The position numbers and the translations under genes were made by a program. Source: an uncultured delta proteobacterium (GTDB lineage: Bacteria > Desulfobacterota > Desulfobacteria > Desulfobacterales > JAFDCJ01). From it: 64,000 bases of DNA. The stretch covers positions 1 to 64,000 of the forward strand of contig CAVYNY010000011.1 of the NCBI GenBank assembly GCA_963769935.1. The letters run 5' to 3'. The notes under the pieces are model-generated. The model was not told the origin of the DNA, did no database searches, and saw nothing but the letters and a program-made list of their open reading frames with translations. Shown piece by piece: positions 13,678 through 63,219 of the stretch (positions are counted from its first letter, which is position 1; each line of letters opens with the position of its first letter).

Positions 13678-13844
13678 ATTGAATATTTTCGATTGAATAT
13701 TGAATATTTAAGGTATTCTTCCGATTTAATAAAGAAGGAGCATCACGCGGCGCAAGCGCCTGCGCTGCGCGAGCGACATCCACCAATATTCAATTTACAA
13801 TCTTCAATTTTCAATTCTCCGCCTCAAGGCGGATCCAGGTTAGG
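13678..13844. repeat. Inverted heptamer-array cassette (ATTGAAT...ATTCAAT) ending in CCGCC-N3-GGCGGATCCAGGTTAGG
   Basis: Tandem ATTGAAT units on the left arm, ATTCAAT/TCTTCAAT units on the right arm. Confidence 0.8.
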
Positions 13845-13849
13845 ACATC

Positions 13850-14776
13850 ATGCTGCAATACCTGTTTAAAAGACTCTGGCACACTGTTTATGTCATTATC
13901 GGCATTTCGGTGATCAGTTTCTTTTTTATCCACCTGTCCGGGGATCCGGTGATGCTCATGCTGCCGGCCGACGCCTCCAACCAGGAGATCGAAGACCTGC
14001 GGCAACAGCTCGGGTTCAATGATCCCATCTACGTTCAGTACCTGCGGTTTGCCTGGCAGGCGCTGCGCGGTGAGTTCGGCCAGTCGCTGTATTACAAGAT
14101 TCCGGCTATGCAGCTGATCCTCGAACGGCTGCCGGCCAGCCTTGAACTGGCGGTGGCTGCCATGCTGATTGCGCTGGTGGTGGCGGTGCCCATTGGTATT
14201 ATCTCGGCGGTGCGCCGCGGGTCGCTGCTGGACATGGGCAGCATGTTCGGCGCTCTGTTCGGTCTGTCCATGCCGCATTTCTGGCTGGGAATCATGCTGA
14301 TTATGATTTTTTCGGTCAAACTGGGCTGGCTGCCGACCTCGGGCCGGGGCACTCTGGCGCACCTGATCATGCCGTCCGTGGCGCTGGGGTTGAGCCTGAT
14401 GGCCATGTTCGCCCGTCTGACACGTTCGGTGATGCTCGAAGTGTTGAGCCTGGATTACATCCGCACGGCCCGCTCCAAAGGGCTCAAAGAACGGATCGTC
14501 GTTGCCAAACATGCTTTCAAGAATGCGCTGATCCCGCTTGTCACCGTGGCCGGCATGCAGTTCGGGTTTTTGCTGGGCGGCACGGTCATCATCGAGACCG
14601 TTTTTGCCTGGCCGGGTGTCGGCCGCCTCGTGGTCCAGGCGATTTTCAACCGGGACTACCCCCTGGTGCAGGCCGTCGTTCTGGTGCTGGCGGTGATCTT
14701 CGTTGCGGTCAACTTCATCGTCGACATGCTTTATATGTATTTGGACCCCCAGATCAGCTATTTCGAGGACAAATGA
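13850..14776 (+). CDS. Dpp/Opp ABC permease (DppB-like)
   Basis: GDP...QYL; DYIRTARSKGL; ETVFAWPGVGRL. Confidence 0.93.
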   Translation: MLQYLFKRLWHTVYVIIGISVISFFFIHLSGDPVMLMLPADASNQEIEDLRQQLGFNDPIYVQYLRFAWQALRGEFGQSLYYKIPAMQLILERLPASLELAVAAMLIALVVAVPIGIISAVRRGSLLDMGSMFGALFGLSMPHFWLGIMLIMIFSVKLGWLPTSGRGTLAHLIMPSVALGLSLMAMFARLTRSVMLEVLSLDYIRTARSKGLKERIVVAKHAFKNALIPLVTVAGMQFGFLLGGTVIIETVFAWPGVGRLVVQAIFNRDYPLVQAVVLVLAVIFVAVNFIVDMLYMYLDPQISYFEDK

Positions 14777-15687
14777 ACCAGCAGGCTGCTGCCAAAGCAT
14801 CCATTTTCGAAGATATCACGCCCCGGCTGCGGTTTATGACCGAGACCCTGCGGGAGGTGGCCCGGCGCCCCAGCGCCCTGCTGGGCGGGATCATGATTAC
14901 AGCCATCCTGCTGACCAGTGTTTGTTTCCCCCTCTTTTATCCGGTGGATCCCCTGGAGCAGGATTTGCTGGCTCGCTTCACACCGCCGGTCTGGCAGGAA
15001 GGCGGCAGCTGGGTTTACCCCCTGGGGGCGGACAACCTCGGCCGCGATGTATTGGCCCGCCTGCTCTACGGCAGCCGGGTGTCGCTGCTGGTCGGCTTTG
15101 CGGCCGTGCTGGTGGCGGAGCTGGCCGGGATCATGCTGGGGCTTTTTTCAGGCTACTACGGCGGCAAACTCGACAGCCTGATCATGCGGGTGGCCGACAT
15201 CTTCATGGCCTACCCCTTTATGCTGCTGACCATATCGGTCATCGCCGTGCTGGGAACCTCGATCTTCAACCTGATCCTGGTGCTGGGACTTTCCGACTGG
15301 GTGACCTATGCCCGCACTATCCGGGGCAGCGTCCTGTCCCTCAAGGAAAAGGAGTTCGTGGAAGCCTCGCGGGCCATCGGCACCCCCCACCGGGTGATCA
15401 TCTTCCGGCACATCCTGCCGAACGTGATTTCACCGCTGCTGGTACTCGGCACACTGCGGGTGGCCAACATCATCATCTGGGAAAGCGGACTTTCTTTCCT
15501 GGGCATGGGCGTGCCGCCGCCGATGCCCACCTGGGGGCGAATGCTGGCGGAAGGCCGGCTTTACATTACCGACGCCTGGTGGCTGGTGACCTTGCCCGGT
15601 GTGGCCATCATGCTGACCATTTTGTCGATCAACCTGTTGGGAGACGGCCTGCGGGATGCTTTGGATCCGCGGCTTCGCAACATTTGA
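14773..15687 (+). CDS. Dpp/Opp ABC permease (DppC-like)
   Basis: LGADNLGRDVLARLLYG; EFVEASRAIG; GDGLRDALDP. Confidence 0.93.
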   Translation: MNQQAAAKASIFEDITPRLRFMTETLREVARRPSALLGGIMITAILLTSVCFPLFYPVDPLEQDLLARFTPPVWQEGGSWVYPLGADNLGRDVLARLLYGSRVSLLVGFAAVLVAELAGIMLGLFSGYYGGKLDSLIMRVADIFMAYPFMLLTISVIAVLGTSIFNLILVLGLSDWVTYARTIRGSVLSLKEKEFVEASRAIGTPHRVIIFRHILPNVISPLLVLGTLRVANIIIWESGLSFLGMGVPPPMPTWGRMLAEGRLYITDAWWLVTLPGVAIMLTILSINLLGDGLRDALDPRLRNI

Positions 15688-15706
15688 CGCTTAGAAGGGA
15701 AAAAAA

Positions 15707-16894
15707 ATGACGAAAGTACTGGTGCTGGGCCTCGGCCTGCAAGGCAAGGCGGTTATTCACGATCTGGAGCAGAGTGATCTGGTGTCCGAAGTCGTGGTGG
15801 CGGACATCGACCCGCAGGCAATGCAGGGCTTTTTCGAACGCAAAGGCTACCGCAGGTGCCGGGCGGTTGGACTGGACGCCGCCCGGCCGGGAGCTTTGTC
15901 GGAGCTGATCGAAACGGTCGGACCGCAGATTACTATCAGCATGCTGCCGGCCGACTTCAATTATCCCGCTGCCCGGGCGGCCCTGACGGCCGGGTGCAAC
16001 TTTGTCAGCAGCAGTTACGCCGGCCGGGTGGCCGAACTGGATGCGGAAGCCCGGGCCCAGGGGGTCACCCTTTTGCCCGAAATGGGAATGGACCCCGGGA
16101 TCGACCTCGTCCTCGGACGCCTGGCCGTGGACGAACTGGACGTGGTGCACGGTCTGTACTCATACGGGACCGGCCTGCCCGAGCCCGGTTGTGCCGGGGA
16201 CAACCCCCTGCATTACAAGATCACCTGGACTTTCGACGGCGTCCTGAAAGCCTACAAGCGATCCTCCCGCATCCTGAAAGATGGCAAGGAAGTGGCCATC
16301 GCCGGAGAGGAAATTTTCAGGGACGAGCACGGCCACACCCTTGAGATCCCGGGACTCGGACCGCTGGAGGCCTATCCCAATGGCGACGCCATCCACTACA
16401 TCCAGGTTTTTGGGCTCGGACCCGAAGTCCGGGATATGGGCCGTTTTGCTTTGCGGTATCCCGGACACCGGCGCTTCTGGGCGGTGATGGCCGGGCTGGG
16501 GTTTCTGGACGACGCACCTCTGCCGGTCGACGGCGGGTCGATTTCTCCCCGGCAGTTTTTGGTCCGGCACCTGACGCCGAAACTTCAGTTCGCCGACGAT
16601 GAACGCGACGTCATCATCCTGCGGGTGAACGCCTGGGGACTCAAGCAAAACCGGCAGCGACGGGTGACCTACCAGCTCATCGATTACCGGGACCTCACCT
16701 CCGGACTGTTTGCCATGAATCGGACGGTGGGTTACACCGCCAGCATCGCGGCGCAGATGATTCTCAAAGGGCAGATCACGGCTGCCGGGGTTCTGTCTCC
16801 GACCCGGGATGTGCCCCCCAAGGATCTGCTGCGCGAACTCAAGGCCCGGGGGATGCAGGTCGAGCATCGGATTGAAGAAAGCGAGAACCTTTAA
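15707..16894 (+). CDS. Saccharopine dehydrogenase-family oxidoreductase (lysine 6-dehydrogenase-like)
   Basis: Rossmann VLVLGLGLQG; GMDPGID; NPLHYKITWT; LRYPGH; AMNRTVGY. Confidence 0.88.
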   Translation: MTKVLVLGLGLQGKAVIHDLEQSDLVSEVVVADIDPQAMQGFFERKGYRRCRAVGLDAARPGALSELIETVGPQITISMLPADFNYPAARAALTAGCNFVSSSYAGRVAELDAEARAQGVTLLPEMGMDPGIDLVLGRLAVDELDVVHGLYSYGTGLPEPGCAGDNPLHYKITWTFDGVLKAYKRSSRILKDGKEVAIAGEEIFRDEHGHTLEIPGLGPLEAYPNGDAIHYIQVFGLGPEVRDMGRFALRYPGHRRFWAVMAGLGFLDDAPLPVDGGSISPRQFLVRHLTPKLQFADDERDVIILRVNAWGLKQNRQRRVTYQLIDYRDLTSGLFAMNRTVGYTASIAAQMILKGQITAAGVLSPTRDVPPKDLLRELKARGMQVEHRIEESENL

Positions 16895-16898
16895 GCGG

Positions 16899-19468: not shown

Positions 19469-19553
19469 GCATTTTTGCCAGGCGGGTTATAAAAGAACGG
19501 ACCTATATACAAAATTTAGGATAAACGGCATTCGAATAGAAAGGAGGCCAACC

Positions 19554-21617: not shown

Positions 21618-21662
21618 TCATTGAACAGGCTGATTCTGGATAAAAAATGGTCCCGACCGCAT

Positions 21663-25462: not shown

Positions 25463-25624
25463 TTATCGAAGGGTAAGCTCTTTTGTTTCATCAAAAACTT
25501 ACGATTGAACTCAAAGCATCCAAAAGGAATCAGGGGGGAAGGATCGCTGCCGGAAATGCTTCCCCCCTTCACAGAACGTATGAGACCTCGCGAAATTACG
25601 ATGCAACTATCAGGTAACCATTCT

Positions 25625-25709
25625 GCCGCAGAGACCGCTGAGATCGCAGAGATTAGGAAAAATTGTAAGAGAGTTCCCTCAGCGTTCCTCTGCGAACTTG
25701 GCGGTGAAA
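25625..25709. repeat. Inverted CCGCAGAG-type repeat cassette
   Basis: CCGCAGAGACCGCTGAGATCGCAGAG ... CTCAGCGTTCCTCTGCGAACTTGGCGG; relatives at 30412-30440 and 48596-48682. Confidence 0.75.
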
Positions 25710-25787
25710 TATTAAGTTTTATTTCTCGATCAGACCGGCCGTTATTTTGGCCGGCGGTTGGGATGAAAGTTAATTTGTAAATGTACG

Positions 25788-30226: not shown

Positions 30227-30649
30227 TGGACTCACATTAGGGAGTTTTCCGAGTATCTATAAAGGTTTTTGTCAGATTGTAACGTAAAATTAAAAAATCC
30301 CATGCAAGCACCAAAATAAAATTAAATCTCAAATATCAATATTCAAAAACTCGACTTGAATTAAAGAATCCTCTTTTTTCTTCTAATACGTTCAATGTTG
30401 TTGAGACCTGGATTCACCGCAGAGGCGCAAGAGCGCAGAGGGCATTTTTCTTATTTCTTTTCGGTGAGAGGCCGAAAAGAAATGAATTTCGCCCTTCTAC
30501 GCCAGCGGATTCGCTGACACCCTGGCCCAGACCTGACTTTGTATGAATTTGTAAAACTAGACATTATTGGATTTCCCTGGCTAACAGAAAAAATTCTCTA
30601 TGTCGCACCAGGGCAGGCTGACATTTACACCTGAAACCTCTCCAAGCAC

Positions 30650-31693: not shown

Positions 31694-31979
31694 TTTGTTC
31701 CTCCCGATTTTTTATATTGAAGATTGAAAATTGCAGATTGAATATTTGTGGAACCTTGTCGTTTTTGTCTCTTACCTGATTTAATTGTCATTTAACAGGC
31801 CGGTGTGTCAAGTACAAAGGTTCCCGGTTGTTTTTTATGCTGGGATAGAAGTAAAAAAATCCATGCTCAATTGTAACTTTTTCGGGTTTGTTTCGTTTTA
31901 AGGTCTAAAGTCGAATTTTGGGCTGCAGCTGTATCGAAAATTTCCAAAACAAACATTCAAACAAATCTGGAGGAGACAA

Positions 31980-35182: not shown

Positions 35183-35260
35183 TTGGGTTATTGGAGTGCT
35201 GGAGTGTTGGAAGTATTATGATATGTTCATTACTCCAGTACTCCAACACTCCATTACTCC
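35183..35260. repeat. Inverted octamer-array cassette (TGGAGTRY ... CATTACTC) between metY and metX
   Basis: TTGGAGTGCTGGAGTGTTGGAAGTATT ... CATTACTCCAGTACTCCAACACTCCATTACTCC. Confidence 0.8.
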
Positions 35261-35318
35261 TTTTCCTGAAGGCCGATACCCCTTATTTTTTATATCTATT
35301 TTTCTTTTCCACCGGCAT

Positions 35319-37076: not shown

Positions 37077-37156
37077 AATCACGAAAACACGAAATCTGGA
37101 AAGCACGCAATTTGTCTTTTATCTTTTTCGTGTTTTCGTACTTTCGCGTTTTCCTG
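37077..37156. repeat. Inverted CACGAAA-type cassette
   Basis: ATCACGAAAACACGAAATCTGGAAAGCACG ... TTTCGTGTTTTCGTACTTTCGCG; close relative at 63092-63176. Confidence 0.8.
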
Positions 37157-37187
37157 ACTAATTTTTCCTTTTGGGTTTCCCGATAAA

Positions 37188-38600: not shown

Positions 38601-38700
38601 TGAGTTGATCCCCTTCGAAAGTCGGATTTTAACTTGCAATTATCTCTAAAACATTATAGTTAGCCACATTGTGGTAGAAATGTCAATAAAAAATTGATGC

Positions 38701-38916
38701 GGGTTCTGGGTTCAAGATTCCCGGTTCTTTGAGGAGCGCATGGTTTCAGGCCATTCATTTCAGGCTGCCCGGTTGAACGCTTCATCTATCGGACTTTTCT
38801 AAAGCTGCAACTTCTGCAAAGTACATCGATCAGTGATAGTGAATCATCATGAACTCCTCGCGGCTGAGTTTGCCGGAGGCTGAACCTCTGAACCTCTGAA
38901 CGTTGAACCTTTGAAC
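38701..38916. repeat. Inverted GGTTC/TGAACCTC tandem arrays
   Basis: GGGTTCTGGGTTCAAGATTCCCGGTTC ... TGAACCTCTGAACCTCTGAACGTTGAACCTTTGAAC. Confidence 0.65.
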
Positions 38917-38928
38917 GGTTAGTCCGGC

Positions 38929-43262: not shown

Positions 43263-43332
43263 TATGCTTTATCCTTTCAGCTTACTTTACAATAACCCTT
43301 ACATAATTGCAGTATCTTAACTGTTTGAGAAA

Positions 43333-43434
43333 GCCACAAATTAACACGAATTTTCACGAACTTATTTTCCGGTATAAATGACCCTGCTTTTACCTATTCC
43401 CATAATTCGTGGTTATTTGTGTCCATTCGTGGCT
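43333..43434. repeat. Inverted nonamer cassette (CACGAATT ... ATTCGTGG)
   Basis: GCCACAAATTAACACGAATTTTCACGAA ... ATTCGTGGTTATTTGTGTCCATTCGTGGC. Confidence 0.8.
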
Positions 43435-43539
43435 AACTTATATTTGAAAAGACTAAAATCATATGAATAATGGAATTTTGCCCATGAATCCCATCGGGCA
43501 TGACAGACGATATTGCGATAAATTCTCTGATTGTTGGAA

Positions 43540-43582: not shown

Positions 43583-43888
43583 AAATTCAGACAAAATTTA
43601 GATTCTGTGTTAATTTTTCCACCCCGCATCAGAATATGCAACTATTCCGCAATATTTTAAGGCATATACCTGAAGAAAAGTTAATCCTACTGATCCGGTT
43701 AATCCTGTCTAATAAAAAACCATAAAATAGGAATCCATTCAACTAACCATCCCGGCCCCGCGTGAGTGTGAAATGACAATAAGCAAACGCGAGATGATTC
43801 TAAAAACCGCCGCCCGCCTTGCCTTCCAGCGTCCTTTTCATTTTATCGAATTTCTCCGGCTGTCGAGGGCAGATGGTGGACCTATGAA

Positions 43889-44281
43889 CTACCAGATGGA
43901 TTTTACGTGAGGATAGGAAAGAATTTTTTTGTCAGCTGTAAGAATCGTGCAGTCTTTCAAACGTGCAGTCGCAGTGATAATTCGATCGGCAGGATCGGCA
44001 TGAAAGGTATCAGGCAATGAATATGTCTCTTCCATAATTTCAAGGCTGATGTTTTCGACTTGCCAGTTATTCAGTTCAACATAGTATCCGAACCACTTTT
44101 TCCAATGACGGTCAATGGTAATACGCTGACGCTCAGCCGCGCAGGCAAGTTCTGCTACACTGATCACCGAAACGTAAATTTCGGATTCATCTGCAGTTAG
44201 GAGGGCTCTTGCTTCTTTTGAGATAGTGGAAGGTTCGGATATCGCCCAGATAATGCAACACGTATCCAGCAATAGTTTCAT
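43889..44281 (-). CDS. vapC: PIN-domain toxin, VapC family
   Basis: LLLDT; SVISVAE; HADPADRII.ATA; LTAD. Confidence 0.92.
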   Translation of the reverse strand: MKLLLDTCCIIWAISEPSTISKEARALLTADESEIYVSVISVAELACAAERQRITIDRHWKKWFGYYVELNNWQVENISLEIMEETYSLPDTFHADPADRIITATARLKDCTILTADKKILSYPHVKSIW

Positions 44282-44520
44282 CTTCGCAGCATGTCCCAGC
44301 TGTCTTCCGGAATCAAAGGCTCCGTCAGATCGCCTTTTATCCGGACGGTTCCCAAGCCGCAGCCAAGTTGGGTTCGGTTTGGGGTCCTCTCGGAATGGTG
44401 GGGAACCAGCAAGGCAATGGGGATATTGCGCTTGCGGATTTCAACCACTTCACCCTGTTCCACAAAATTGATGAATTTGCTGAGATTATCTTTAAGATCG
44501 CCTATGTTAGCCGTTTTCAT
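44278..44520 (-). CDS. Phd/YefM-family antitoxin
   Basis: MKTANIGDLKDNLSKFI..VEQGE.V.I.KRN.PIA.L; 4-nt overlap with vapC. Confidence 0.9.
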   Translation of the reverse strand: MKTANIGDLKDNLSKFINFVEQGEVVEIRKRNIPIALLVPHHSERTPNRTQLGCGLGTVRIKGDLTEPLIPEDSWDMLRR

Positions 44521-44555
44521 GGCTAAAATATAGGCTAAAAAGTTAGCCATGTCAA
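44519..44555 (-). promoter_or_regulatory. TA promoter/operator; probably a leaderless transcript
   Basis: TTGACA-N17-TATATT-N6-ATG; GGCTAA/TTAGCC repeats within and after the spacer. Confidence 0.75.
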
Positions 44556-44822: not shown

Positions 44823-46384
44823 ATGCGAAAATTCAGAAAATATCTACTCACCATGGCTTTACTGCCGTTACTGATCACCGGTGCGCTTCTCTGGCTGACA
44901 GCGTCCAGCGGCTTTGCCGAGATCGACGAGCTCAGAATCGGCATCGGCATCGACGCCGACACATTAAACCCCCAAGAGCAGACCACCACCCTGATTCAGA
45001 ACATCTGCGACCTGATCTACGACAACTTTTTTTTCCAGACCGCGGACGCAAAACTTGAACCGCGCCTGGCTACCGGCTACGAGATCAGCCCCGACGGGCT
45101 GACCTACACCATCCACCTGAGAAAAGGGGTCAAATTCTCCGACGGGACCGATTTCAATGCCGACGCCATCAAACTGACCTGGCAGCGAATGCTCGACCCT
45201 CAGAAAAGGGTGCCGCTCCGGTTTGGCGTCAGCATGGTCACCGACTGCATAAAAGTCGACGACCATACTGTGCAGCTCAAGCTCAAATACCCCTTTGCCC
45301 CGATGGCCCTTCCCTGTCGCTGACGCTCACCAGCGTCATCTCCCCCGCGGCGATTGAAACGTACGGCGACGAAGTCCGGCAACACCCCGTAGGCGCCGGG
45401 CCCTACGTTCTGAAGGAGTGGGTCAAGGGGGACCGGGTCGTTCTGGTCCGAAACGAGAACTACTACGGTAAAAAGCCCACGGTGCGCCAGATCACCTACA
45501 GGATCGTCCCCGATGTGTCCACCCGCGAGGCCATGCTGCGCGCCGGACAGATCGACATCTGCTACAAGCCCTCCCCCTCGAACGTGGCCGCGCTAAAAGC
45601 CGACCCGAACATCACCGTCGACATGCCCCTGGACACACGCAGCATCTTCATGGCTTTCAGGACCGATCTTCCGGTGTTCAAGGACAAGCGGGTCCGGCAG
45701 GCCTTCAACTATGCGGTCGACAAAAAGGCCATCGTAAATAAGATCCTCTTCAATACCGCAGAACCGATGGACGGCGCCGTGTCCCCGATTCTTTTCGGCT
45801 ACGCCAGGATGGAAAATCAGTACGACTACAATCCGGACAAGGCCAAGGCCCTGCTGAAGGAAGCCGGCTTCGACTTCAACCACGTGGTCCGGATGGGAAC
45901 CCCTACCGGCCGTTACCTCTTCGACAAGCAGGTATCGGAAGCGGTTCAGGCGTATCTTCAGGCCATCGGGGTCAAAGCTGAGCTGAGGGCCTTCGATTGG
46001 CCCACTTACATGTCGGCGGTTTACAAACCGGCGGACCAGTCCGTCGTCGATATGGATCTGCTCGGATGGGGCCCCCTCTATCTCGACTCCGACATGCAGC
46101 TTTACGGCCAGTTCACCTGCGCGGTGGTTCCGCCCAAAGGGCTCAACTCCGCCTTCTACTGCAACCCGGCCTATGACCAGCTGATGGAGGAAAGCCGGAG
46201 GGAGCAGAACGTCGAAAAACGAAAGGAAATGCTGCAGAAGGCCGGTCAGATCGTCTGGGATGAATGTCCCTGGCTGTGGCTGCATGTTGAAAAATTCGTC
46301 ATCGCCTACAGCGCCAAAATCAAGGACATGGTGGTCACACCGACCGAAAAGTTCTATCCGACCTATATCTCCATGCAGAAGTAA
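44823..46384 (+). CDS. Orphan family-5 ABC substrate-binding protein; -1 frameshift near 45308
   Basis: DTLNP; LRKGVKFSDG; rejoined HPVGAGPY...RVRQAFNYAVD. Confidence 0.88.
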
Positions 46385-46481: not shown

Positions 46482-46542
46482 GAACTGAACGACCACCGTC
46501 TGTAAGATGGTGGGTTCGTTTATCGGTTGAAACCGACTAAAG
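46482..46542. repeat. Double hairpin resembling an IS200/IS605-type end or REP-like element
   Basis: AACGACCACCGTCT-GTA-AGATGGTGGGTTCGTT, then TCGGTTGAAACCGA; no transposase adjacent. Confidence 0.4.
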
Positions 46543-46809
46543 ATTTAAGGAATTTGGTCTATTCCCCTTCTATATCAATGTGGTTTTCGGCGAATCTCTC
46601 GCAGCAAATGAGCTCTTTACTTAATCGTTGCGTTTAGCCGGGTTCTGTTTCCGATCTATACATAATAAATCCTTTTCAGGGAATTCGATTCTTTCCGCCC
46701 GATTCACAAAGCTCACCCACTTCATACAAAATACCCTGCCCTGATCAATGACCGGCACCACATGTACTCCTCTGATTTTCCCAAGCTGGCTTGCCGCCAC
46801 TAACATCGT

Positions 46810-48295: not shown

Positions 48296-48526
48296 TTGAT
48301 TTTTTTTGACGGATCTTCGACTGAAAACTTCGTGCCTCTTCTGGCAGCCGAAGTCCCGACGGTGGCCAACGGCGGAATCTCGGCCGACGGTAAGACTTAT
48401 ACCTTTACGATTCGCAAAGGTGTCAAATTCCATGTCAGAGCCTACCGGGAATATGTATACGGTTTCGTTCCCAATGCCATGTTTACCGATGACAATGAAA
48501 TTTTGAAGCGATTATTCAAGCAGTAG
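48296..48526 (+). pseudogene. Internally deleted, 5'-truncated ABC substrate-binding protein gene
   Basis: FFDGSST...RKGVKFH fused directly to VRAYREYV...LKRLFKQ; both parts align to the ends of SBP 59489-61234. Confidence 0.88.
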
Positions 48527-48527: not shown

Positions 48528-48682
48528 AAGTTTAAGGTTTCAGCGGCGGCGCTGGCCTGAAAATCGGCAAGTCTAATCGAAAAAGTAACATAATAATTCA
48601 CCGCAGAGTTCGCCGAGAACGCCGAGAAAGACCCAAAAGATAATCTAACATAATCTCTGCGTCCCTGGCGCTCTCTGCGGTT
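48528..48682. repeat. Dispersed repeat (AAGGTTTCAG...GCTGGCCTGA..) plus an inverted CCGCAGAG cassette
   Basis: 48528-48590 is homologous to the reverse complement of 59362-59440. Confidence 0.7.
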
Positions 48683-48712
48683 GGCTGAACTGGCACCTGC
48701 CAACCAATCGAC

Positions 48713-49744
48713 ATGCTCGCATTCATTACGCGCAGATTTTTATTATTGATACTCGTCTTGTTCGGCGTATCCGTCCTTATTTTCGGCATTTTGATGACCT
48801 TCAGCCCGGAAAGACGGGCTGCCGTATTCGTCACCTCCCCCCAGCAGGCCAAGGACATCCCTAAAATCATCAGACAATTTGGACTCGACGATCCCGCTTA
48901 CATCCAGTATTTGCGCTGGATGAAAGAAGTCTTCCAGGGCAACCTGGGCTGGTCGGTGGTGGCATCCCGACCGGTCCGGGAAGCCTTCTGGAACTATTTT
49001 CCCGTTACCCTGGAGATGAATCTATTTGCAGCGCCCATTGTGCTGTTTTTTGGTATCTGGCTGGGAACCTTAGCGGGAATCCATCGGGACAAGTGGATTG
49101 ACCACACCACCCGGATTCTGGCCATCGTGGGGTGGTCCCTGCCCACGTTTCTTTTCGCCCTGGTGCTGCTCATGGTGTTTTACGGATACTTCCAAATATT
49201 TTCGCCCGGGGTTCTCAGCGATCAGTTGAGCATGTTCATTATTGATAATCCGGCTAAATACACCAGTTACACCGGTCTTTACACGATTGACGGAATTTTG
49301 AACGGTCATTTGAACATCACTCTGGATGCTCTGGCCCACCTTGTCTGCCCCATATCGACCTATGTGATCGTGGTGGTGGCCCTGAATATGCGGGTAATGC
49401 GTTCGGGAATGATCGAGGAGCTTTCCCGGGACTATGTGATGACCGCCAGGGCCAAGGGTGCGGATCGGCACACGATTCATATTAAACATGCCCGTCGCAA
49501 TGCCCTGCTGCCCGTGATTACGGTCGCCGGCCAGCTGATGGCCATGTCCATGGAAGGCAGCATCGCGGTTGAGGTGGTTTACAATCGGCACGGCATCGGC
49601 TGGTGGCTGGCAGAATCCGCCGTTCAGCTGGACATTCCGGTATTGATGTGTATCTGTCTGTTCATGGGAGTGGTGTTTGTGATCACCAATCTGACATTGG
49701 ATATACTATATGCGTATTTTGACCCCAGGATAAGACTGACCTGA
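48713..49744 (+). CDS. Dpp/Opp ABC permease (DppB-like)
   Basis: GLDDP..QY; DYVMTARAKG; DILYAYFDPRIR. Confidence 0.92.
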   Translation: MLAFITRRFLLLILVLFGVSVLIFGILMTFSPERRAAVFVTSPQQAKDIPKIIRQFGLDDPAYIQYLRWMKEVFQGNLGWSVVASRPVREAFWNYFPVTLEMNLFAAPIVLFFGIWLGTLAGIHRDKWIDHTTRILAIVGWSLPTFLFALVLLMVFYGYFQIFSPGVLSDQLSMFIIDNPAKYTSYTGLYTIDGILNGHLNITLDALAHLVCPISTYVIVVVALNMRVMRSGMIEELSRDYVMTARAKGADRHTIHIKHARRNALLPVITVAGQLMAMSMEGSIAVEVVYNRHGIGWWLAESAVQLDIPVLMCICLFMGVVFVITNLTLDILYAYFDPRIRLT

Positions 49745-49891
49745 TTGAATATTGAATATTGGCAATTGAATATTTAAGGAATTCTATCGATTTTTTAGAT
49801 AACAGGAAAAAACAGCAAATGTCACTCATTTCGCAAAATAAAAATGATAGAATACCACAAATCTTCAATCTTCAATCTTCAATTTGCAATA
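49743..49891. repeat. Inverted heptamer-array cassette (ATTGAAT...TCTTCAA)
   Basis: GATTGAATATTGAATATTGGCAATTGAATATTT ... AAATCTTCAATCTTCAATCTTCAATTTGCAAT. Confidence 0.8.
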
Positions 49892-49945
49892 TGTTGCCGG
49901 CTGATTTTAATTGAACTACCGTAATATAAACCAAATTGTGTTTAT

Positions 49946-50967: not shown

Positions 50968-52131
50968 ATGAAAATGGCGCGTTTGCTGGAAACCGTTGAT
51001 CTGATGACCAACTTCTACACTTACGAAGGGGTGGTCAAGGCCCTGAACAGGGTGAGTCTGGTGGTGGAGCACGGCTCGACCTACGGGCTGGTGGGTGAGT
51101 CAGGCTGCGGCAAGAGCGTGACGGTGCGTTCGATCATGCGCATCGTGCCCGAGCCGGGGCGTATCGAAGACGGCAAAATCATTGTCTACCTGGACGAAGC
51201 GGACCGACAAAACGGCATTGATCTGCTGGAGCAGTCCGAGACCTACATGGAGAGCCTCCGCGGGAACCGCATATCCATGATATTCCAGGAGCCCAATGCA
51301 GCCTTGAACCCGACCATGAGTATCGGTGATCAGGTCGGTGAAAGTTTTTTGTTTCACCGGAAACAGGAAATGAGCGCCGGTATACTGGAGGAATTGGCAG
51401 CGTCGAAACGTCATTTCTTAAATCCATTTAAAAAATTCCTGCAGGCCGTTTACCGGATCGCCGCCCAAAACCCCGCTGACATTCGCCTGCGGATACTTGA
51501 CCGGCTGCCATTGTTGAAGCTCTGGCAGAGGCGCCTCAAAAAGGAAGCCCGCCGCCGTTCGATAGAAATAATCGACAAACTGGGGATCCCCGATGCGGCG
51601 CAGGTGGCCGGGCAGTATCCCCATAATCTTTCCGGCGGGATGAAGCAGCGCATCCTCATTGCCATTGCCCTGGCGTGCAATCCGGTATTGCTGATTGCCG
51701 ATGAAGCCACGTCAAATCTGGATGTAACGATTCAGGCCCAGATCCTGGAACTGCTCCGCGAGCTCAAAGAAGAAGTCATATCTTCGATATTGTTGATTAC
51801 CCACGATCTGGGTGTGGTGGCTGAGACCTGTGACCGGGTGGGGGTGATGTATGCCGGCAACCTGTGCGAGGTGGCCGATGTCGAAGAATTGTTTGAGAAC
51901 CCCCTGCATCCCTATACCCGGGCGTTATTGGACGCGGTACCGAAGTTTGATATGGCAGCAGAACTGCGAAGTATTGAGGGCAATGTGCCGAACCTTGTGA
52001 CGCCGCCGCCGGGATGCCGGTTTCACCCACGCTGCCCCCATGCGATGGATGCGTGCCGGAAAACTTTTCCGGAGATGAAAGAAGTCAAAAAGGATCATTT
52101 GGTGGCCTGTTACTGGATAGAAAAAAGGTAA
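50968..52131 (+). CDS. Dpp/Opp ABC ATP-binding subunit (DppD-like) with a ~60-aa insertion
   Basis: [24 protein letters not shown]. Confidence 0.92.
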   Translation: MKMARLLETVDLMTNFYTYEGVVKALNRVSLVVEHGSTYGLVGESGCGKSVTVRSIMRIVPEPGRIEDGKIIVYLDEADRQNGIDLLEQSETYMESLRGNRISMIFQEPNAALNPTMSIGDQVGESFLFHRKQEMSAGILEELAASKRHFLNPFKKFLQAVYRIAAQNPADIRLRILDRLPLLKLWQRRLKKEARRRSIEIIDKLGIPDAAQVAGQYPHNLSGGMKQRILIAIALACNPVLLIADEATSNLDVTIQAQILELLRELKEEVISSILLITHDLGVVAETCDRVGVMYAGNLCEVADVEELFENPLHPYTRALLDAVPKFDMAAELRSIEGNVPNLVTPPPGCRFHPRCPHAMDACRKTFPEMKEVKKDHLVACYWIEKR

Positions 52132-52280
52132 AAGGTCAAAGGCGAAAGGTTAAAGGCTAAAAGACTGCGGGCGCGAGGAGGCTGGTATGCCGGGAAGCTG
52201 GGAGGCGGCGAAGCTATAAGGCTGGAATACCGAGAACTGGCGTAAACCTCCAAGCCTTTGCGCTTTCAAGCCTCCTGGCA
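52124..52280. repeat. AAAGG heptamer run plus an inverted AAGCT/AGGCT octamer cassette
   Basis: AAAGGTAAAAGGTCAAAGGCGAAAGGTTAAAGGCTAAA; GAAGCTGGGAGGC..AAGCTATAAGGCT ... AAGCCT..AAGCCT. Confidence 0.7.
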
Positions 52281-53376: not shown

Positions 53377-53397
53377 TAAGTGATAAAAGGTTACAAA

Positions 53398-53556
53398 AAG
53401 CTTGGAGGCTTGAAAGCTTGGAGGCTGGGATGCCTGAAAGTTTGGCAACTTGGAAGCTCGGAGGCTTAAATCTGATATTAGCCTCCCAGCCTTATAGCTT
53501 CCTCGCCTCCCAGCCTTCGGGCCTTCAAGCCTTATAGCTTCCCAGCATTCCAGCCA
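53398..53556. repeat. Large inverted octamer-array cassette (AAGCTTGG/AGGCTTGA ... AGCCTCCC/AGCTTCC)
   Basis: About nine 8-bp units per arm, with complementary arms. Confidence 0.85.
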
Positions 53557-54172: not shown

Positions 54173-54240
54173 GTTGGGTGGGCATTGCCCACCGTCAACC
54201 TTCCGGGCAGACAACGTTTGGTGGGCGATGCCCACCCTAC
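54173..54240. repeat. REP-like inverted doublet
   Basis: GTTGGGTGGGCATTGCCCACC ... GGTGGGCGATGCCCACCCTAC (GTAG end on the reverse strand). Confidence 0.75.
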
Positions 54241-54308
54241 GATATGGAATTTTCGCAACGTTAGCACGTTAAGAAGTAATTCTTTGCATTTTATGGCAAA
54301 ATATTTTT

Positions 54309-54403
54309 GCCACCAAGCCACTAAGACACAAAGGAATATTCAGACAAAACCTTTCTTTGTGCCTTTGAGTCTTTGTGGCAATTTTCCGGCTTATCCGGGT
54401 TAG
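54309..54403. repeat. Inverted CACAAAG/CACTAAG cassette ending in TCCGGGTTAGG
   Basis: GCCACCAAGCCACTAAGACACAAAG ... CTTTGTGCCTTTGAGTCTTTGTGGC. Confidence 0.8.
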
Positions 54404-54434
54404 GCGTTAACATGGCAAAGTTCGAAAGGGGCTT

Positions 54435-55016: not shown

Positions 55017-55024
55017 TTCGAATC

Positions 55025-56200: not shown

Positions 56201-56207
56201 GGTTTGA

Positions 56208-57380: not shown

Positions 57381-57541
57381 CAGGAAGGAAAAAAGTGAAG
57401 GCGGATCATCAGCGCCTGCGTTTTTTCGAAATCCAAGGGACTTATTTGAATTGAATCCGCAGTTTTGATTTTTTCTAACGCATACTTATATTCTAATTAA
57501 TCCGCCCTGAATAGCAGCTTCCATCAACAGGCAAAAATAAA

Positions 57542-58404
57542 ATGAAACATATTAAACCCGCCGGAGATCAACCGACCGGAATTTATACAGTGGCTGATCG
57601 TTGGAAACTTATGATGTTGCTGTGTTTGGCAGCTATAGGCATAGGTTTGGCGATCAGCGCCTGTGATTTCCGCAAGGGTCATGCTTCGGCCGAAACAAAC
57701 ACTAGGAAAGACAGCAACATGGAATCAACACAATTGGCCAAAACCATTCAATATAAGATACCGCCCATCGATGCCGCGGCTCCAGCCGAGATTGTAACCG
57801 CAACCTTCGCGCTGGGCTGATTCTGGGGACCCGACTCCCGGTTCGGGAGTATGGAAGGCGTCGTCAGAACTCGTGTCGGATATGCCGGCGGTCAGAAAAA
57901 AGACCCCACCTATCACAGCCTGGGAGACCACAGCGAAACGATCCAGATTGATTATGACCCGGCCCGCATATCGTACCGGAAGCTGCTGTCCATTTTCTGG
58001 CAGAGCCATGACCCAACGTCGCGTGCCTGGAGCCGGCAGTACATGTCGGCCATATTTTACCACAATGATGAGCAGCGAGAGCTGGCCCTTGAAACGAAAG
58101 CCTTCGAGGAAAAACAGAGAAACAAAAAAATCCAGACCGAAATTGTGCCGTTCGAGCGTTCTACCTGGCGGAAGATTATCATCAGAAATATGAGCTGCGA
58201 GGGCATAGTGATCTGATGCGGGAATTTAAGGCCATGTATCCCCGGGACATTGATTTTATCAATTCCACTGCCGCCGCCCGGGTCAACGGCTATCTCAGCG
58301 GCTACGGCAGCCCCGAAGAAATGAAAGCAACCCTCGAACACCTGGGCTTATCGACTGCGGCCCAGGAGCGGCTGTTGGCCAATTCCAATAAGTGGAAAAA
58401 TTAA
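57542..58404 (+). CDS. msrA: Selenocysteine-containing methionine-S-sulfoxide reductase with predicted lipoprotein signal; UGA=Sec at 57818-57820; -1 frameshift near 58159
   Basis: TATFALG-U-FWG (MsrA GCFWG motif); RTRVGYAGG; rejoined FYLAEDYHQKY; STAAARVNGY tail; lipobox ISAC. Confidence 0.88.
57834..57850 (+). promoter_or_regulatory. Bacterial SECIS-like hairpin
   Basis: ACTCCCG-GTT-CGGGAGT, 13 nt after the UGA, with GU in the apical loop. Confidence 0.75.
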
Positions 58405-59226: not shown

Positions 59227-59239
59227 GGCTCCTCCTAGT

Positions 59240-59440
59240 CAATTGAATATTGTCAATTGAATATTGAATATTTATGGTTTCGCTGCGCTCAGACTTTTTT
59301 ATAAAAAAGATAGAATACCTCCCTCGATGTTCGATGTTGGAAGTTCGATGTTCGATGTTCATTAGTTTCTTTTATTGATCAAACTAGCCGCTTCTCAGGC
59401 CAGCGGTCCGCCGGAGGCGGAACACCTGAAACCTTAAGTT
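59240..59440. repeat. Composite cassette: ATTGAAT array, TCGATGT array and dispersed repeat
   Basis: AATTGAATATTGTCAATTGAATATTGAATATTT; TCGATGTTCGATGTTGGAAGTTCGATGTTCGATGTTC; CAGGCCAGCGG...CTGAAACCTT. Confidence 0.8.
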
Positions 59441-59488
59441 TCTGACAAAATGCTGCCGGATAAAACGTCCTAAGGGCCTATTAACCAA

Positions 59489-61234
59489 TCACTTTTTATA
59501 AAGCCGTTTGAGATCCTCCCAGGCATCCGTCAGCATGGCATTGGGCACATAGCCGTGGACATAATCCCGGTAGGCGCGGACGTTGATTTGCTGGTAGAGC
59601 GGGATCCCGACGGCATCCTGATACCACAGGTACTGCAGTCTGGTGTAAATCTGTTCGCGCCGGACCGGGTCGACGGTGGCGATGCCGGCCTCGCAAAGAC
59701 GGTCCACCTCGTCATTTTTATACGCCAGAAACCGGCCGTACACACCCCGGGAGTGCATAAAACTGTACATAAAGTTGTGCGGATCGGCATAGTCCGCCAC
59801 CCAGCCGGTAATAAAAATCGGGTACTGGAAATTACGGTATTGCACCAGATAGTCCTTCCACTCCACATTGCGCACCTCGATCTTGAATTTCGCATTCAAA
59901 GACATCAGGTTTTCCGCCAGCATCAGGGCCGCGGCCTCCCGCATTTCGTTGCCGGTGTTGTGGGCAATGACCATTTTAAAGCCTTTTTGCCATACCTCTC
60001 CCTTCCAGGCTTTTTGCAGATATTGCTTTGATTTGTTCAGATCGAATTCGTAAACCGGTACATCTTTGTGGAAGGGCAGACCCTCAATGTCGGGGCTGGT
60101 CGGCAGGATAACCAGGTTGTTGAACACATCCGCTTTGTAAGTTTGACGGTCAAAGGCGTGCAGAAATGCCTTGCGGACGTTGACATCATTAAAAAAGTCA
60201 GGTGGAACGCCGTCACCGTCCAGCCGGCCGCTGCCGATATTCGGATTGCCGCGAGGATTCACCTTGCGGCAGAAAAGAGCACAGGTGAGGGACAGCTGGG
60301 GTGTCATATACAGCTTCAGTCCCGGCATGGCCTCCACCTCCGGCACATAGGGTGTGTCCACCGTGACGCGGTCGGCATCGCCGTTTTGGAGCATGAGCTT
60401 GCGGGTGCTCCACTCCTTGACATATTTGATGACAGCGGTTTTGAGTGCCGGCCGGGGTCCCCAATATCCCTCAAAACGCTCAAACACAAACTGCTGGGAA
60501 GGCTCCCACAGCTTCATGCGGTAGGCACCGGTGCCGTTGGCAATACCTTGCAGGGGTTCATGCCCCGGCGCCGGGTTGTTGAATCGGGCGGCATTTTTGA
60601 TGCTGCCGTCCCAGCAGCCCTTGGAAATCGCCCATTCCCGGTCCAATATGGAAGCGGCGGAATAGGCCAGAATGCCCATCAACGGCGGAAACGGCCGCGG
60701 CAGGTGAAAAACAATGCGATCGTCTTTGACTTCCACGGCCTGGTCGATGGCTTCAAAGATCCCGGCAATGATGGCGCCGTCCTTATCCCTGGTTGAACCA
60801 CGGCCGGTCAACGCCTCCAGCAGCATCCACATGGGGCCGCCGTCCGGATCCACGATCATGGCGCGTTTAATTGAGTAGGCAACATCTTCCGGCGTTAATT
60901 CGCCGCCTTCCTGAAATTTAACCCCCTTGCGGATATGGAAAGTATAAGTTTTTCCGTCCGGTGAGATTCCCCCGTTTTCAAGGGTCGGAACATATTGGGC
61001 CAGCAGCGGAACATATTTTTCGGTGCTGGAACCGTCAAAGAACACCAGGGTTTCGTAGATATTCCAGATTCTCTGTGAGCCGGTGGCATCATAGCAAACC
61101 GCCGGGTCCAGGGTGCGCAGGGTGCCGTAGTTGGCCAGCACAAATGTGTCCGGATTTTTTACGATTGCATGCGCGGTGAGGGTCCCCATCACAATCAGAA
61201 AGCAGCAAAAAATTATCAAACCCGTCTTTTTCAT
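59489..61234 (-). CDS. Orphan family-5 ABC substrate-binding protein
   Basis: ATG 61234 after GAGG; signal peptide; KNPDTF; TLDPA..YD; NGTGAY; GWVADYADP. Confidence 0.93.
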   Translation of the reverse strand: MKKTGLIIFCCFLIVMGTLTAHAIVKNPDTFVLANYGTLRTLDPAVCYDATGSQRIWNIYETLVFFDGSSTEKYVPLLAQYVPTLENGGISPDGKTYTFHIRKGVKFQEGGELTPEDVAYSIKRAMIVDPDGGPMWMLLEALTGRGSTRDKDGAIIAGIFEAIDQAVEVKDDRIVFHLPRPFPPLMGILAYSAASILDREWAISKGCWDGSIKNAARFNNPAPGHEPLQGIANGTGAYRMKLWEPSQQFVFERFEGYWGPRPALKTAVIKYVKEWSTRKLMLQNGDADRVTVDTPYVPEVEAMPGLKLYMTPQLSLTCALFCRKVNPRGNPNIGSGRLDGDGVPPDFFNDVNVRKAFLHAFDRQTYKADVFNNLVILPTSPDIEGLPFHKDVPVYEFDLNKSKQYLQKAWKGEVWQKGFKMVIAHNTGNEMREAAALMLAENLMSLNAKFKIEVRNVEWKDYLVQYRNFQYPIFITGWVADYADPHNFMYSFMHSRGVYGRFLAYKNDEVDRLCEAGIATVDPVRREQIYTRLQYLWYQDAVGIPLYQQINVRAYRDYVHGYVPNAMLTDAWEDLKRLYKK

Positions 61235-61431
61235 ATTTACCTCACGCCGGCGCTCGTTGAGATGATTGGGTTTGCTGGATTGATTGAGTTGATGGAGTTG
61301 GATAGGAATTTTTCTTATTAGATGGTCATACCGCTTTAAAAACAACTGACTACGGACAACTATCCACGGCCATAATGCAGAATCGCTCAATTAAAGAATA
61401 ACATTTTGCCGGCGAATACCACCTTTCAGAT

Positions 61432-61686
61432 TCATTTTTTCTCAGAATCGAGATTGCTGTAAAGTTGATTCCAGCGGGCAAAGGGAATGGACTTTAGATC
61501 CTGTAGATCAGACTGCGGAATTCTGCCGATGGTGGTGTTGGGCGCGTAGTAGCACTGCTGTCCCTTGTAGGGACCATCTTCGATAATCCAGCCTTGCGTG
61601 ACAGCAAGTTTTTTGCCCACAAAATTACTTGCCTCGGAATTATATTGCTTTTGGTCGGCCGGACTGAAAATGCCTTCAAAATACAT
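61432..61686 (-). CDS. Small hypothetical protein (84 aa)
   Basis: Strong RBS GAGGAGG; fills the intergenic gap and is co-oriented with neighbours. Confidence 0.65.
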   Translation of the reverse strand: MYFEGIFSPADQKQYNSEASNFVGKKLAVTQGWIIEDGPYKGQQCYYAPNTTIGRIPQSDLQDLKSIPFARWNQLYSNLDSEKK

Positions 61687-61868
61687 AATCTGCCTCCTCG
61701 AAAAAATTAAGCAGGGTCGGCAATTACCCTGCTGGATTGAGTGTGTTCATTCAACATTACCCACTCGTACAAAAATGTCAAGCTTATAAAAATATTGAAA
61801 TATGATCAATTTTTAGGCTTTAAATTCAGAGGGCATACCTCGAAATGTCGCCGGTCAATCAAAAATAG

Positions 61869-62996
61869 TCATCCCAAAGCCTGGTCGATGTCGGCGATAA
61901 TGTCATCCACATCCTCAATACCGACAGATAGCCTCAGCAACCTTTCGGTGATGCCCAGCTCGGCGCGTTCTGCGCTGCTCATTTTTTCATGGGAAGTTGC
62001 TACCGGCGCACAAACAATGGTTTCAACGCCGCCGAGACTGAGAGCCGGTTTTATCAGGTTCAGCTTCTTGAGGAATTCACGGGGAGAAATGCGTTGATCG
62101 TCCAGTTCAAATGAAAGCATGCCGCCGAAGCCTTTCATCTGTCCGGCCGCAATCTCAAACCCCGGATGATTTTCCAGGCCCGGGTAGTTTACTTTCCGGA
62201 TCAGCGGATTTTTTTGCAGGTATCGGGCAATCGCCAGGGCGTTTATATTCTGCTGCGCGACCCTTATTCCCATGGTTTTTAAACTTCTTTCGATCAGATA
62301 GCAGGTGACGGCGTTCAGGCTGCCGCCGAAATTAGCGGCCGATTGTCTGATTATGGCGATCAACGCCTGGGACGCCACGACGGCGCCGCAGCAGATGTCA
62401 CTATGCCCGCCGATGTACTTGGTCCCGCTGTGCAGAACGATGTCGATTCCTAAATCAAGGGGATTCTGGTTGATCGGCGTGGCAAACGTATTGTCAATCA
62501 GGGTTAAAATATTTTTTGATTTTGCAATGCGGGAGACGGCCGCTATATCCGTGATCAACAGCAGCGGATTAGACGGCGATTCAATATAGATGATGCGGGT
62601 GTTTGGGCGGATGGCGCTTTCCAGCTCAGCCATATTGTTGGATACCAAAGTGTATTGGATGCCGAATTTATCGAATTCGGCTGTGGCAAAATGATGCGTG
62701 CCGCCGTAAATATCTCTTTGCAGAACGATGTGGTCCCCGCTGCCAAGCAAAGAAAAAATTGCGGTACTGATGGCCGCCATGCCGGAGCTGAAAAAAAGAC
62801 CGTCCTCGGCGTTTTCCAGCGCACACAATTTATTAATGATCGCTTTTTGGTTGGGCGTGTTGAAATAGCGCGGATAAACATTTTCCGGCGTGTCCAGGTA
62901 TTCAAATGAAGAAGAGGGAAAAATCGGTGTATTTATGCCTCTGGTTCGGGGGTCCGGGTAGGTGCCGCTGTGGACGCACTGCGTATTTTTTTTCAT
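61869..62996 (-). CDS. PLP-dependent transsulfuration enzyme (cystathionine/methionine gamma-lyase family)
   Basis: YPRYFNTPN; FSSGMAAIS; ESPSNP; HSGTKYIGGHSD; SLGGVET. Confidence 0.92.
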   Translation of the reverse strand: MKKNTQCVHSGTYPDPRTRGINTPIFPSSSFEYLDTPENVYPRYFNTPNQKAIINKLCALENAEDGLFFSSGMAAISTAIFSLLGSGDHIVLQRDIYGGTHHFATAEFDKFGIQYTLVSNNMAELESAIRPNTRIIYIESPSNPLLLITDIAAVSRIAKSKNILTLIDNTFATPINQNPLDLGIDIVLHSGTKYIGGHSDICCGAVVASQALIAIIRQSAANFGGSLNAVTCYLIERSLKTMGIRVAQQNINALAIARYLQKNPLIRKVNYPGLENHPGFEIAAGQMKGFGGMLSFELDDQRISPREFLKKLNLIKPALSLGGVETIVCAPVATSHEKMSSAERAELGITERLLRLSVGIEDVDDIIADIDQALG

Positions 62997-63077
62997 AATC
63001 AGCCTCCGGTTTGGCCTCAGTCTTAAGTTGGTACTGTATATTAGTCTTAATGATGAATTCTTTGTATTACATGCAAT

Positions 63078-63219
63078 CCGCCTTGGGCGGATCACCACGA
63101 AAACACGAAATTTTGAAAGCACGAAATTTATCTAATCATCTTTTCGTGTTTACGTCCTTTCGTGCTTTCGTGATTAATTTGTCCTTTTTAGTTCTCCGCC
63201 TCTGGCGGATCCGGGTTAG
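63078..63219. repeat. Inverted CACGAAA cassette bracketed by CCGCC-N3-GGCGGAT motifs
   Basis: CCGCCTTGGGCGGATCACCACGAAAACACGAAA ... TTTCGTGCTTTCGTG ... CCGCCTCTGGCGGATCCGGGTTAG. Confidence 0.8.

Follow-up and report, generated by a model that had tools for sequence, protein, structure and literature searches.

Inverted repeat cassettes at gene junctions of a Desulfobacterales genome: gene-less copies of two small, probably mobile cassette kinds

Many gene junctions in the first 64,000 nt (positions 1-64000; the window) of contig C11 in an 8.0-Mb, 41-contig assembly (G000) of an uncultured Desulfobacterales bacterium hold cassettes built from a tandem array of degenerate 7-9-mers, a spacer, and the complementary array. 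We hold with moderate confidence that these are copies, without a gene, of two small cassette kinds, and that they likely spread as mobile elements at the DNA level, likely through recognition of the arms by the protein of their own cassette. In its full form, a cassette carries either a four-helix-bundle gene (PF05635) or a GxxExxY gene (PF13366) between the same inverted arrays of 7-9-base units. Arms are common to gene-bearing and empty forms, with repeat unit and protein clade travelling together across loci and phyla; the empties have been multiplied as units; and junction occupancy turns over within the genus.

Gene-bearing forms were collected from a genus sample of 23 genomes, all incomplete assemblies, in which PF05635 gave 164 matches (110 fetched) and PF13366 gave 28 (23 read). 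The former family occurs in 23/23 genomes and the latter in 14/23. G000 itself has seven PF05635 matches and two PF13366 matches, one of these with a stop; all seven PF05635 genes lie between arms and on the strand of their neighbors, the ATTGAA cassette at C13:92531 and the TGGAGT cassette at C9:239211 being filled forms. Removal of the G000 loci and of five of six identical copies in genome G007 left 126 loci, and removal of seven with short flanks left 97 PF05635 and 22 GxxExxY loci for the flank test. Inverted pairing of the two flanks exceeded the threshold, set at the 95th percentile of mismatched-flank controls, in 83 and 17 of these loci, respectively, against 10 and 9 in the direct orientation. 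The best flank arrays had periods of 7 to 8 at PF05635 genes (83/97) and 8 to 10 at GxxExxY genes (19/22) and held a median of 4.4 units when built of 7- or 8-mers and of 3.3 when built of 9-mers (heptamers, 10th to 90th percentile, 3.1-6.7). When arms from the window were matched to 134 gene-bearing flanks with reversed sequence as control, the ATTGAAT, TGGAGT, and TGAACC arms found four-helix-bundle loci, and the CCGCAGAG, CACGAAA, and CACAAAG arms found GxxExxY loci, those of CCGCAGAG also matching an empty copy beside L150. A link to these two gene types, put forward in the original prediction, is thus borne out. Arms were shared by 81% of 32 non-syntenic PF05635 pairs at protein identities of at least 80%, by 38% of 37 pairs at 70-79%, and by at most 1% below. 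In GTDB, one PF05635 clade (44 loci; 27 with a full match and flanks) passed the same inverted-arm score at 23 of 27 loci, which carry, by eye, a GAAG-rich 8-mer in Desulfobacterota, Nitrospirota, Bacteroidota/Chlorobi, and others. A tree, for which the careful search was incomplete, served only to order rows. Capture of host genes was discarded as chance, since called host genes stood between arms 32 times in the correct order and 31 times in the wrong order. A separate layout, recalling solo long terminal repeats or integron attC arrays, has cargo flanked on both sides by whole empty hairpins or by direct repeats of ~100 nt (L070, L077, L081, L086, L175, L189, L190, L195, L202, and G000:C8 188400-189100).

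The empties are far more numerous than the filled forms of G000. The genome-wide census that the original prediction had called for covered 1.96 Mb of intergenic DNA, delimited by gene calls from our own open reading frame (ORF)/dicodon script, in which some AT-rich genes are missing and some starts are misplaced. It returned 1,739 tandem arrays, where two shuffles gave 23 and 30, period 7 being the commonest (956), followed by periods 8 (456) and 9 (247). An inverted partner stood 20-500 nt away from 461 of the 1,701 arrays of periods 7 to 9 (controls, 91 direct and 42 reversed) and within 2.5 kb of 663 (326 direct, 110 reversed). These figures rest on local alignment, which replaced a looser first search with a high background. 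Merging yielded 385 gene-less inverted pairs with gaps of at most 300 nt, and 1,038 of 5,649 junctions (~18%) held an array. Units seen at least three times numbered 109 and fell into 24 single-linkage clusters. An occupancy of this extent, with so many unit clusters, suggests large-scale remodeling of operon junctions in sediment bacteria. The ATTGAA pattern had 300 matches in G000 and 0 to 304 in 22 congeners, of which 20 were positive; of 18 other families, 3 had matches, never more than 14. Its abundance did not follow the presence of the cognate gene cleanly, genome G020 having the gene and only three matches.

Multiplication of the empties is seen in their interiors. A spacer match at another locus (score of at least 0.3) was found for 71 of 274 cassettes and for none of 274 shuffled ones, after 29 of 303 tested cassettes had given no candidates. 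Because these spacers recur at unrelated loci, the empties themselves multiply. The CACGAAA family has 35 to 43 copies, depending on the cut-off, and the GACAGGAT family has 11, at 89-97% identity. Shared interiors with defined ends are clear in the CACGAAA, GACAGGAT, and TGGAAT families and looser in ATTGAA, for which a scheme of two asymmetric left and right end modules was abandoned after the combinations proved mixed. In 38 aligned CACGAAA copies, the left end lies near CTTAA and the right end reads CCGG-loop-CCGGGTTAG, in common with the CACAAAG family; the end module of the original prediction is therefore an element terminus. TCCGGGTTAG is the right end of CACGAAA and CACAAAG elements, and the palindrome at 13819 has a loop of 4 bases and not of 3. 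Within the inner module, CCGCC-N3-GGCGG and CGCTTCGC palindromes occur as small inserts. GNA loops occupy 34 of 60 intergenic CCGCC-N3-GGCGG palindromes, and 19 of 27 within modules read GNA on the strand on which they form the 3′ arm. Only GNA triloops are described as forming the extra-stable DNA mini-hairpin, the corresponding RNA hairpins being much less stable (PMC13037366).

Comparison of orthologous junctions revealed that the cassettes are not fixed: bare, empty, gene-filled, and decayed states, as well as cassettes of another family, occur at matched positions. The oppB-oppC-oppD-oppF-ppiA gene run (labels provisional, from sequence likeness) was compared across 20 loci plus L006. In 12 loci, the oppB/oppC gap measures 27 to 290 nt; the inner module and right arm of G000 recur in G008 and G015 with an AATGAC left arm, and G011 and G025 have no arms. 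Between oppD and oppF lie 7 nt in G018, -13 to 30 nt in a further six, and 113-294 nt, with other families, in six more. A PF05635 fragment at oppC/oppD in L019, bordered on both sides by scaffold Ns, was not counted as proof. In the reverse direction, 64 of the 126 gene-bearing loci mapped to 37 junction calls in G000, two of them overlaps. Bare junctions (-1 to 6 nt) account for four, a gene is present in four (one truncated), gene remnants detectable by tblastn are present in three, and the others among the junctions listed have empties of the same family, other families, or nothing recognizable. Relatives have cargo of the one or the other class at C11:329678. Loss of the gene by internal deletion gives rise to some empties, and antisense gene remnants occur in empties. 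This turnover, together with the gene-bearing counterparts, agrees with the proposal of non-autonomous elements of a mobile system. The companion idea of empty insertion sites is not supported, the pre-insertion state being a bare junction of -1 to 6 nt (4/37) and the empties being multiplied inserts; relatives at 55-94% protein identity are too distant for exact pre-insertion sites. The near-identical strains X1-X3 keep the cassettes wherever their contigs cover them. Related organisms replace 59236-59472 by 39 letters (X13), 38693-38902 by 32 (X13), and 43283-43466 by 8 (X11), a hint only, as each joint comes from a single contig of uncertain origin. Since matched junctions show every one of these states (bare, empty, filled, decayed, and swapped), the genus lends itself well to testing.

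The same comparisons bear on in-place growth, whereby immobile arrays would lengthen by polymerase slippage or template switching at hairpins, the link to small genes being incidental. Heptamer slippage has been proposed (PMC4679880), and the wide copy-number range of the heptamer arrays as well as arms that change unit at one orthologous site would fit it. However, spacers and ends are shared among unrelated loci, a result that largely refutes this origin; complete gene-bearing cassettes in relatives stand opposite bare junctions of -1 to 6 nt; and the pairing of unit and protein clade is constant in different phyla. We consider in-place growth very improbable as the source of the cassettes, and slippage probably shapes arm length only.

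Position and strand are relevant to a route through RNA. Of the 383 placed cassettes, co-directional gaps hold 302, convergent gaps 55, and divergent gaps 26. The last, which make up 12% of junctions and 24% of intergenic length, are depleted. Arrays within 10 nt after a stop are mostly of the left type (259 of 271 typed; 12 right, 40 untyped), and those within 30 nt before a start are mostly of the right type (141 right, 18 left, 27 untyped). Intact cargo shares the strand of the upstream gene in 105 of 110 cases (no upstream gene was found for 16 of the 126 loci). These biases would also be expected if the cassettes were mRNA counterparts of rRNA intervening sequences, with RNase III excising the stem and thereby tuning operons, and with spread through an RNA intermediate behind terminating ribosomes. 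RNase III is present in G000, the protein family and the stem-enclosed layout recur in the 23S intervening sequences of Coxiella and Leptospira (PMC4990558), and other miniature inverted-repeat transposable elements (MITEs) affect mRNA stability (PMC2229807). Nevertheless, asymmetric empties face both ways, with no significant strand bias in any of seven families (lowest p, 0.11; CACGAAA, 15 versus 16). Sense-strand G·T and A·C mismatches are balanced in empties (388/355) and in filled forms (145/154 and 36/47), i.e., no G·U excess is seen. One junction can show chimeric, solo, and absent states, antisense gene remnants are at odds with this route, and the reverse transcriptases of G000, including those beside Y1 genes, are group II intron-like and unlinked to arms. 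We regard the RNA route as quite unlikely. Tuning of mRNA processing, as the original prediction had it, is likewise unsupported because neither strand bias nor G·U bias is apparent (the control for the latter being underpowered), and unpaired chimeric arms persist. GC skew was too weak, and too confounded by gene strand, for a replication-strand bias to be read. On the DNA-level reading, the place behind stops would mostly reflect purifying selection, that slot and promoter-free gaps being harmless, and an influence on mRNA, if any, would be a by-product. Transcription of intact cassette genes continues from the operon upstream of them.

The two cassette proteins offer candidate activities for a DNA-level process. 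The GxxExxY protein keeps E23, D63, E73, and K75, the E and the E-x-K being invariant and the D near-invariant. Its model (predicted local distance difference test score, 96.5) has as top fold matches Cas4, lambda-type exonucleases, and Hjc resolvases, the last of the same small size, and its sequence clusters in the Atlas contain PF13366 only. On sequence and model grounds, it is thus predicted to be a nuclease of the PD-(D/E)XK fold whose catalytic motif combines an acidic residue and E-x-K. For the four-helix-bundle protein, there is a match to TIGR02436, and homologues are found in PDB entries 2RLD and 2GSC, of five chains each, 2GSC being described as a homopentamer (PMC4990558). The median of 4.4 units per array would correspond to about one 7-8-mer per subunit of the pentamer. 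The proposed mechanism would start with recognition by each cassette protein of its own repeat arms, which may pair, either as a fold of single-stranded DNA or as an extruded cruciform. With its predicted fold and Holliday-junction-resolvase size, the GxxExxY protein might cut the folded arms; a pentameric ring of the four-helix-bundle protein could bind about one 7-8-mer per subunit and recruit or protect an intermediate; and host repair or a further transposase would complete insertion. In this scheme, the cassettes are likely DNA elements akin to MITEs and to the hairpin doublets (REPINs) that repetitive extragenic palindromic (REP) elements form, mobilized with help from their own cassette proteins.

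A separate HUH transposase of the IS91, IS200, or REP-associated tyrosine transposase (RAYT) type might instead act in trans on the hairpin ends, the four-helix-bundle and GxxExxY genes being accessory cargo. G000 has 11 Y1 (PF01797) and 2 Y2 transposase matches, and the absence of target duplication as well as the GNA mini-hairpins would suit single-strand transposition. In G007, six near-identical elements (L091-L096) have TGGAAT arms around a PF05635 gene and an interrupted Zn/Y2 transposase of the IS91 family. There, and at L136, L226, and L241, a four-helix-bundle gene replaces orf121 in the IS91-family element, both genes lying inside TGGAAT arms and each being interrupted by a small palindromic insert. 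At the left end of this lineage, GTTC lies beside a palindrome, as described for terIS (PMC13181058); its right end has eight matches in G000, four of which follow TGGAAT-type arms by eye, with a remnant on C13 near 346400-346620. However, only 6 of 30 fetched IS91 loci in the genus (of 52 matches), all of one lineage, have the four-helix-bundle gene, and no repeat arms stand in the examined flanks of the Y1/Y2 genes of G000 (10 of the 11 PF01797 matches). A single transposase would moreover leave the match between repeat unit and protein clade unexplained. We judge a trans-acting transposase unlikely as the general agent. As an aside, a multi-copy group II intron-like reverse transcriptase lies directly upstream of Y1 genes at G000:C11:461700-464300, C17:221200-223300, and C15:144300-146700.

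Several points weigh against mobility driven by the cassette proteins. Binding, cutting, and excision by these proteins are all proposals; all fold matches of the GxxExxY protein are weak (best E, 7e-3), with no sequence match in the PDB, and the four-helix-bundle protein has no known catalytic activity. G000 has one intact GxxExxY gene for several 9-mer families. No paired arms above the threshold were found at 14 of the 97 four-helix-bundle loci, and one PF05635 clade (L051, L062, L113, L115, L126, and L127, at a seemingly conserved locus) has no arms by eye and is possibly a domesticated branch. A match of clade and unit would be expected, too, from joint descent of gene and arms alone. Among the 134 flanks, the arms at 43333, 52176, and 53398 scored barely above the reversed control and found no clear partner gene. 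By eye, neither a target-site duplication nor a common terminus was seen when aligned CACGAAA/CACAAAG copies and other families were compared. The GNA-loop copies are related rather than independent and give a hint, not a statistic. In gaps with at least 100 nt of free space, 27 of 183 lie within 8 nt of a stop, against 8.7 under a uniform null, an excess that does not prove targeting, as stacked inserts inflate the free space. Both this excess and the co-orientation of cargo would be predicted by an RNA-linked route as well, and the G·U comparison is not validated, its terminator control (7/6) being uninformative.

A bolder form of the cassette-protein reading is possible but doubtful to us: the cassettes would be free of transposases, TIGR02436 and TIGR04256 proteins each reading their own arms in a clade-to-repeat code and mobilizing themselves and hundreds of empties via single-strand or cruciform DNA. 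If so, it would explain the excess of intergenic heptamer repeats in bacteria, and ORF-bearing rRNA intervening sequences would be stranded members of the cassette class. Tying two very common families of hypothetical proteins to specific DNA words would in any case suggest a concrete substrate for each.

The cassettes work like REPIN/RAYT systems and MITEs and share protein and layout with rRNA intervening sequences, yet on the features compared they belong neither with REPIN/RAYT systems nor with intervening sequences. As in REPIN/RAYT systems, inverted hairpin doublets are numerous, non-autonomous, and over-represented in extragenic space, and sequence groups are each tied to their own single-copy gene (Bertels and Rainey 2011, PMC3116915); here, the arms are tandem degenerate 7-9-mers rather than palindromic REPs, and the linked genes are PF05635 and PF13366, placed between the arms, rather than a tyrosine transposase. 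No Y1 HUH gene flanked by the repeats was found among the 10 flanks examined for 11 PF01797 matches. REP arms are short palindromes that bear a GTAG-type 5′ tag; no such arm was found in the cassettes, whose arms are tandem 7-9-mers. With the 23S intervening sequences (S23p), the cassettes have in common the protein family, complementary flanks, sporadic distribution, and reductive ORF decay (PMC4990558), the PF05635/TIGR02436 ORF inside the stem being found in filled forms only and in none within the window. They differ in their tandem-repeat arms, hundreds of empties, and location, the seven PF05635 genes of G000 and the window cassettes all lying between protein genes and none in rRNA. The bacterial MITEs (Correia/NEMIS, ERIC, RUP, and YPAL) are similarly short, AT-rich, gene-less, multi-copy, hairpin-forming, and intergenic (PMC2229807), and here, too, gene-less units occur in many copies that share an interior and have defined ends; in contrast, no TA ends, target duplication, or terminal repeats like those of insertion sequences were seen by eye, and the parent lacks a DDE transposase. 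IS91 elements with orf121, in which a small ORF lies directly upstream of the Zn/Y2 transposase and GTTC by the terminal palindrome (PMC13181058), resemble one TGGAAT lineage, where the small ORF is PF05635 and both genes lie inside repeat arms; no Y2 HUH gene accompanies the window cassettes. Membership in a diversity-generating retroelement found no support, the Avd model scoring 19.6 against a cut-off of 80 bits and PF05635 and reverse transcriptase coordinates not adjoining. Rfam, including Gut-1 (RF01706), gave no match in the window at gathering score. The TAACTGA heptamers of Beggiatoaceae also come as two to six oriented units just before starts or overlapping stops, patchily across phyla, with no transfer mechanism evident, and are described as direct repeats with no four-helix-bundle or intervening-sequence link in the text searched (PMC4679880); here, such units are arms of inverted cassettes, which are a candidate source for oriented intergenic heptamer repeats. 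The short tandemly repeated repetitive (STRR) sequences of cyanobacteria are comparable intergenic heptamer repeats. No link between these genes and tandem-repeat arms was found in the literature searched, which excluded most subscription journals and supplements, so that a prior mention is possible.

Within the window, an array is present at every site that the original prediction listed, and the design of array, spacer, and complementary array holds at most of them, the exceptions being 59240, which is chimeric, and 30412, which has no right arm. Arm complementarity exceeds that of shuffled controls: folded as RNA against dinucleotide shuffles, 11 of 14 stretches gave z scores of -2.6 or lower, the weaker ones being 38695-38925 (-2.1), 52176 (-1.6), and 59240 (-0.8). 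An automatic arm test, whose k-mer sets derive partly from these same cassettes, was passed by 16 of 36 junctions of at least 45 nt, two of them without an array on reading, and it missed the cassette at 54309. The ATTGAAT family is represented by an empty cassette at 13678..13816 (z, -5.0), composed of about four heptamers, an inner module, a spacer with a small palindrome, and the complementary arm. Its best matches are the flanks of the four-helix-bundle genes L154 and L158 and the C13 copy of G000, and it is followed at 13817..13846 (+) by a CCGCC-loop-GGCGG palindrome with a TCCAGGTTAG end module. A second empty cassette of this family, at 49743..49892 (z, -3.7), overlaps the oppB stop codon with its first unit, and a solo ATTGAAG left arm with inner module lies at 31714..31770. 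At 59238..59362 (z, -0.8), an ATTGAAT left arm faces a non-complementary right arm of the ACATCGA family (TCGATGT), with no long hairpin. A genome-wide count of chimeras gave only 13 pairs, all of the same family; this number is too small and does not support the chimeras seen by eye as a common state.

The 9-mer CCGCAGAG family has empty cassettes at 25620..25712 (z, -2.6), matching the GxxExxY flanks L063 and L064 and the empty copy beside L150, and at 48594..48685 (z, -5.5), preceded by a AGGTTTCAG-type element after the stop of an oppA fragment. The left half of a GxxExxY-type CCGCAGAG cassette, with an inner perfect hairpin and no CGCAGAG right arm, lies at 30408..30490 (score with the L064 flank, 139; reversed control, 31). 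MITE-like copies of the CACGAAA family are found at 37077..37165 (z, -5.5), matching GxxExxY flanks L068 and L075, and, in full, at 63043..63220 (+; z, -5.6), with two CCGCC-N3-GGCGG insertions, a TCCGGGTTAG end, and a 98% twin on contig C16. The CACAAAG-family MITE-like copy at 54272..54405 (+; z, -4.3) has the outer ends of the CACGAAA family and matches GxxExxY flank L074. The empty TGGAGT-family (8-mer) cassette at 35183..35263 (z, -8.4) matches the flanks of the C9 four-helix-bundle gene of G000 and of L133, and the GGTTCAG/CTGAACC-family cassette at 38698..38922 (z, -2.1), with a spacer of ~140 nt, matches four-helix-bundle flanks L061, L101, and L048. Cassettes with no clear gene-bearing partner in the sample are the CACGAATT-family one at 43330..43440 (z, -4.6) and two of the AAGCT/AGGCT family (8-mer), one with weak pairing at 52176..52280 (z, -1.6) and one with long arms at 53396..53556 (z, -6.1). 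A solo AAAGGT heptamer array at 52123..52163 overlaps the oppD stop codon, and a solo right arm of the GACAGGAT type lies near 43690-43712.

Other features of the window were noted alongside the cassettes. A REP-like doublet at 54173-54240 consists of GTTG/GTAG-tagged palindromes with 21-nt arms that are 90% complementary, and its pattern has 16 intergenic matches in G000. A palindromic 55-nt element lies at 46490-46545, which we take to resemble an IS200/IS605-type end. The binding-protein gene of the opp operon is a 64-codon fusion of start and end and is whole in relatives, and other oppA-like pieces plus a full paralogue lie nearby (44823-46384, 48332-48526, 59489-61390). An MsrA-like gene at 57611-58216 (+) has an in-frame TGA at 57818-57820 within its GxFWG motif, which probably encodes selenocysteine, and its frame seems to shift near the 3′ end. 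The two-gene module at 43889-44550 (-), whose upstream ORF is weakly Phd-antitoxin-like, is likely a type II toxin-antitoxin pair. Finally, positions 1-4070 hold RHS core fragments, small downstream ORFs, and a 39-nt direct repeat at 3995-4069.

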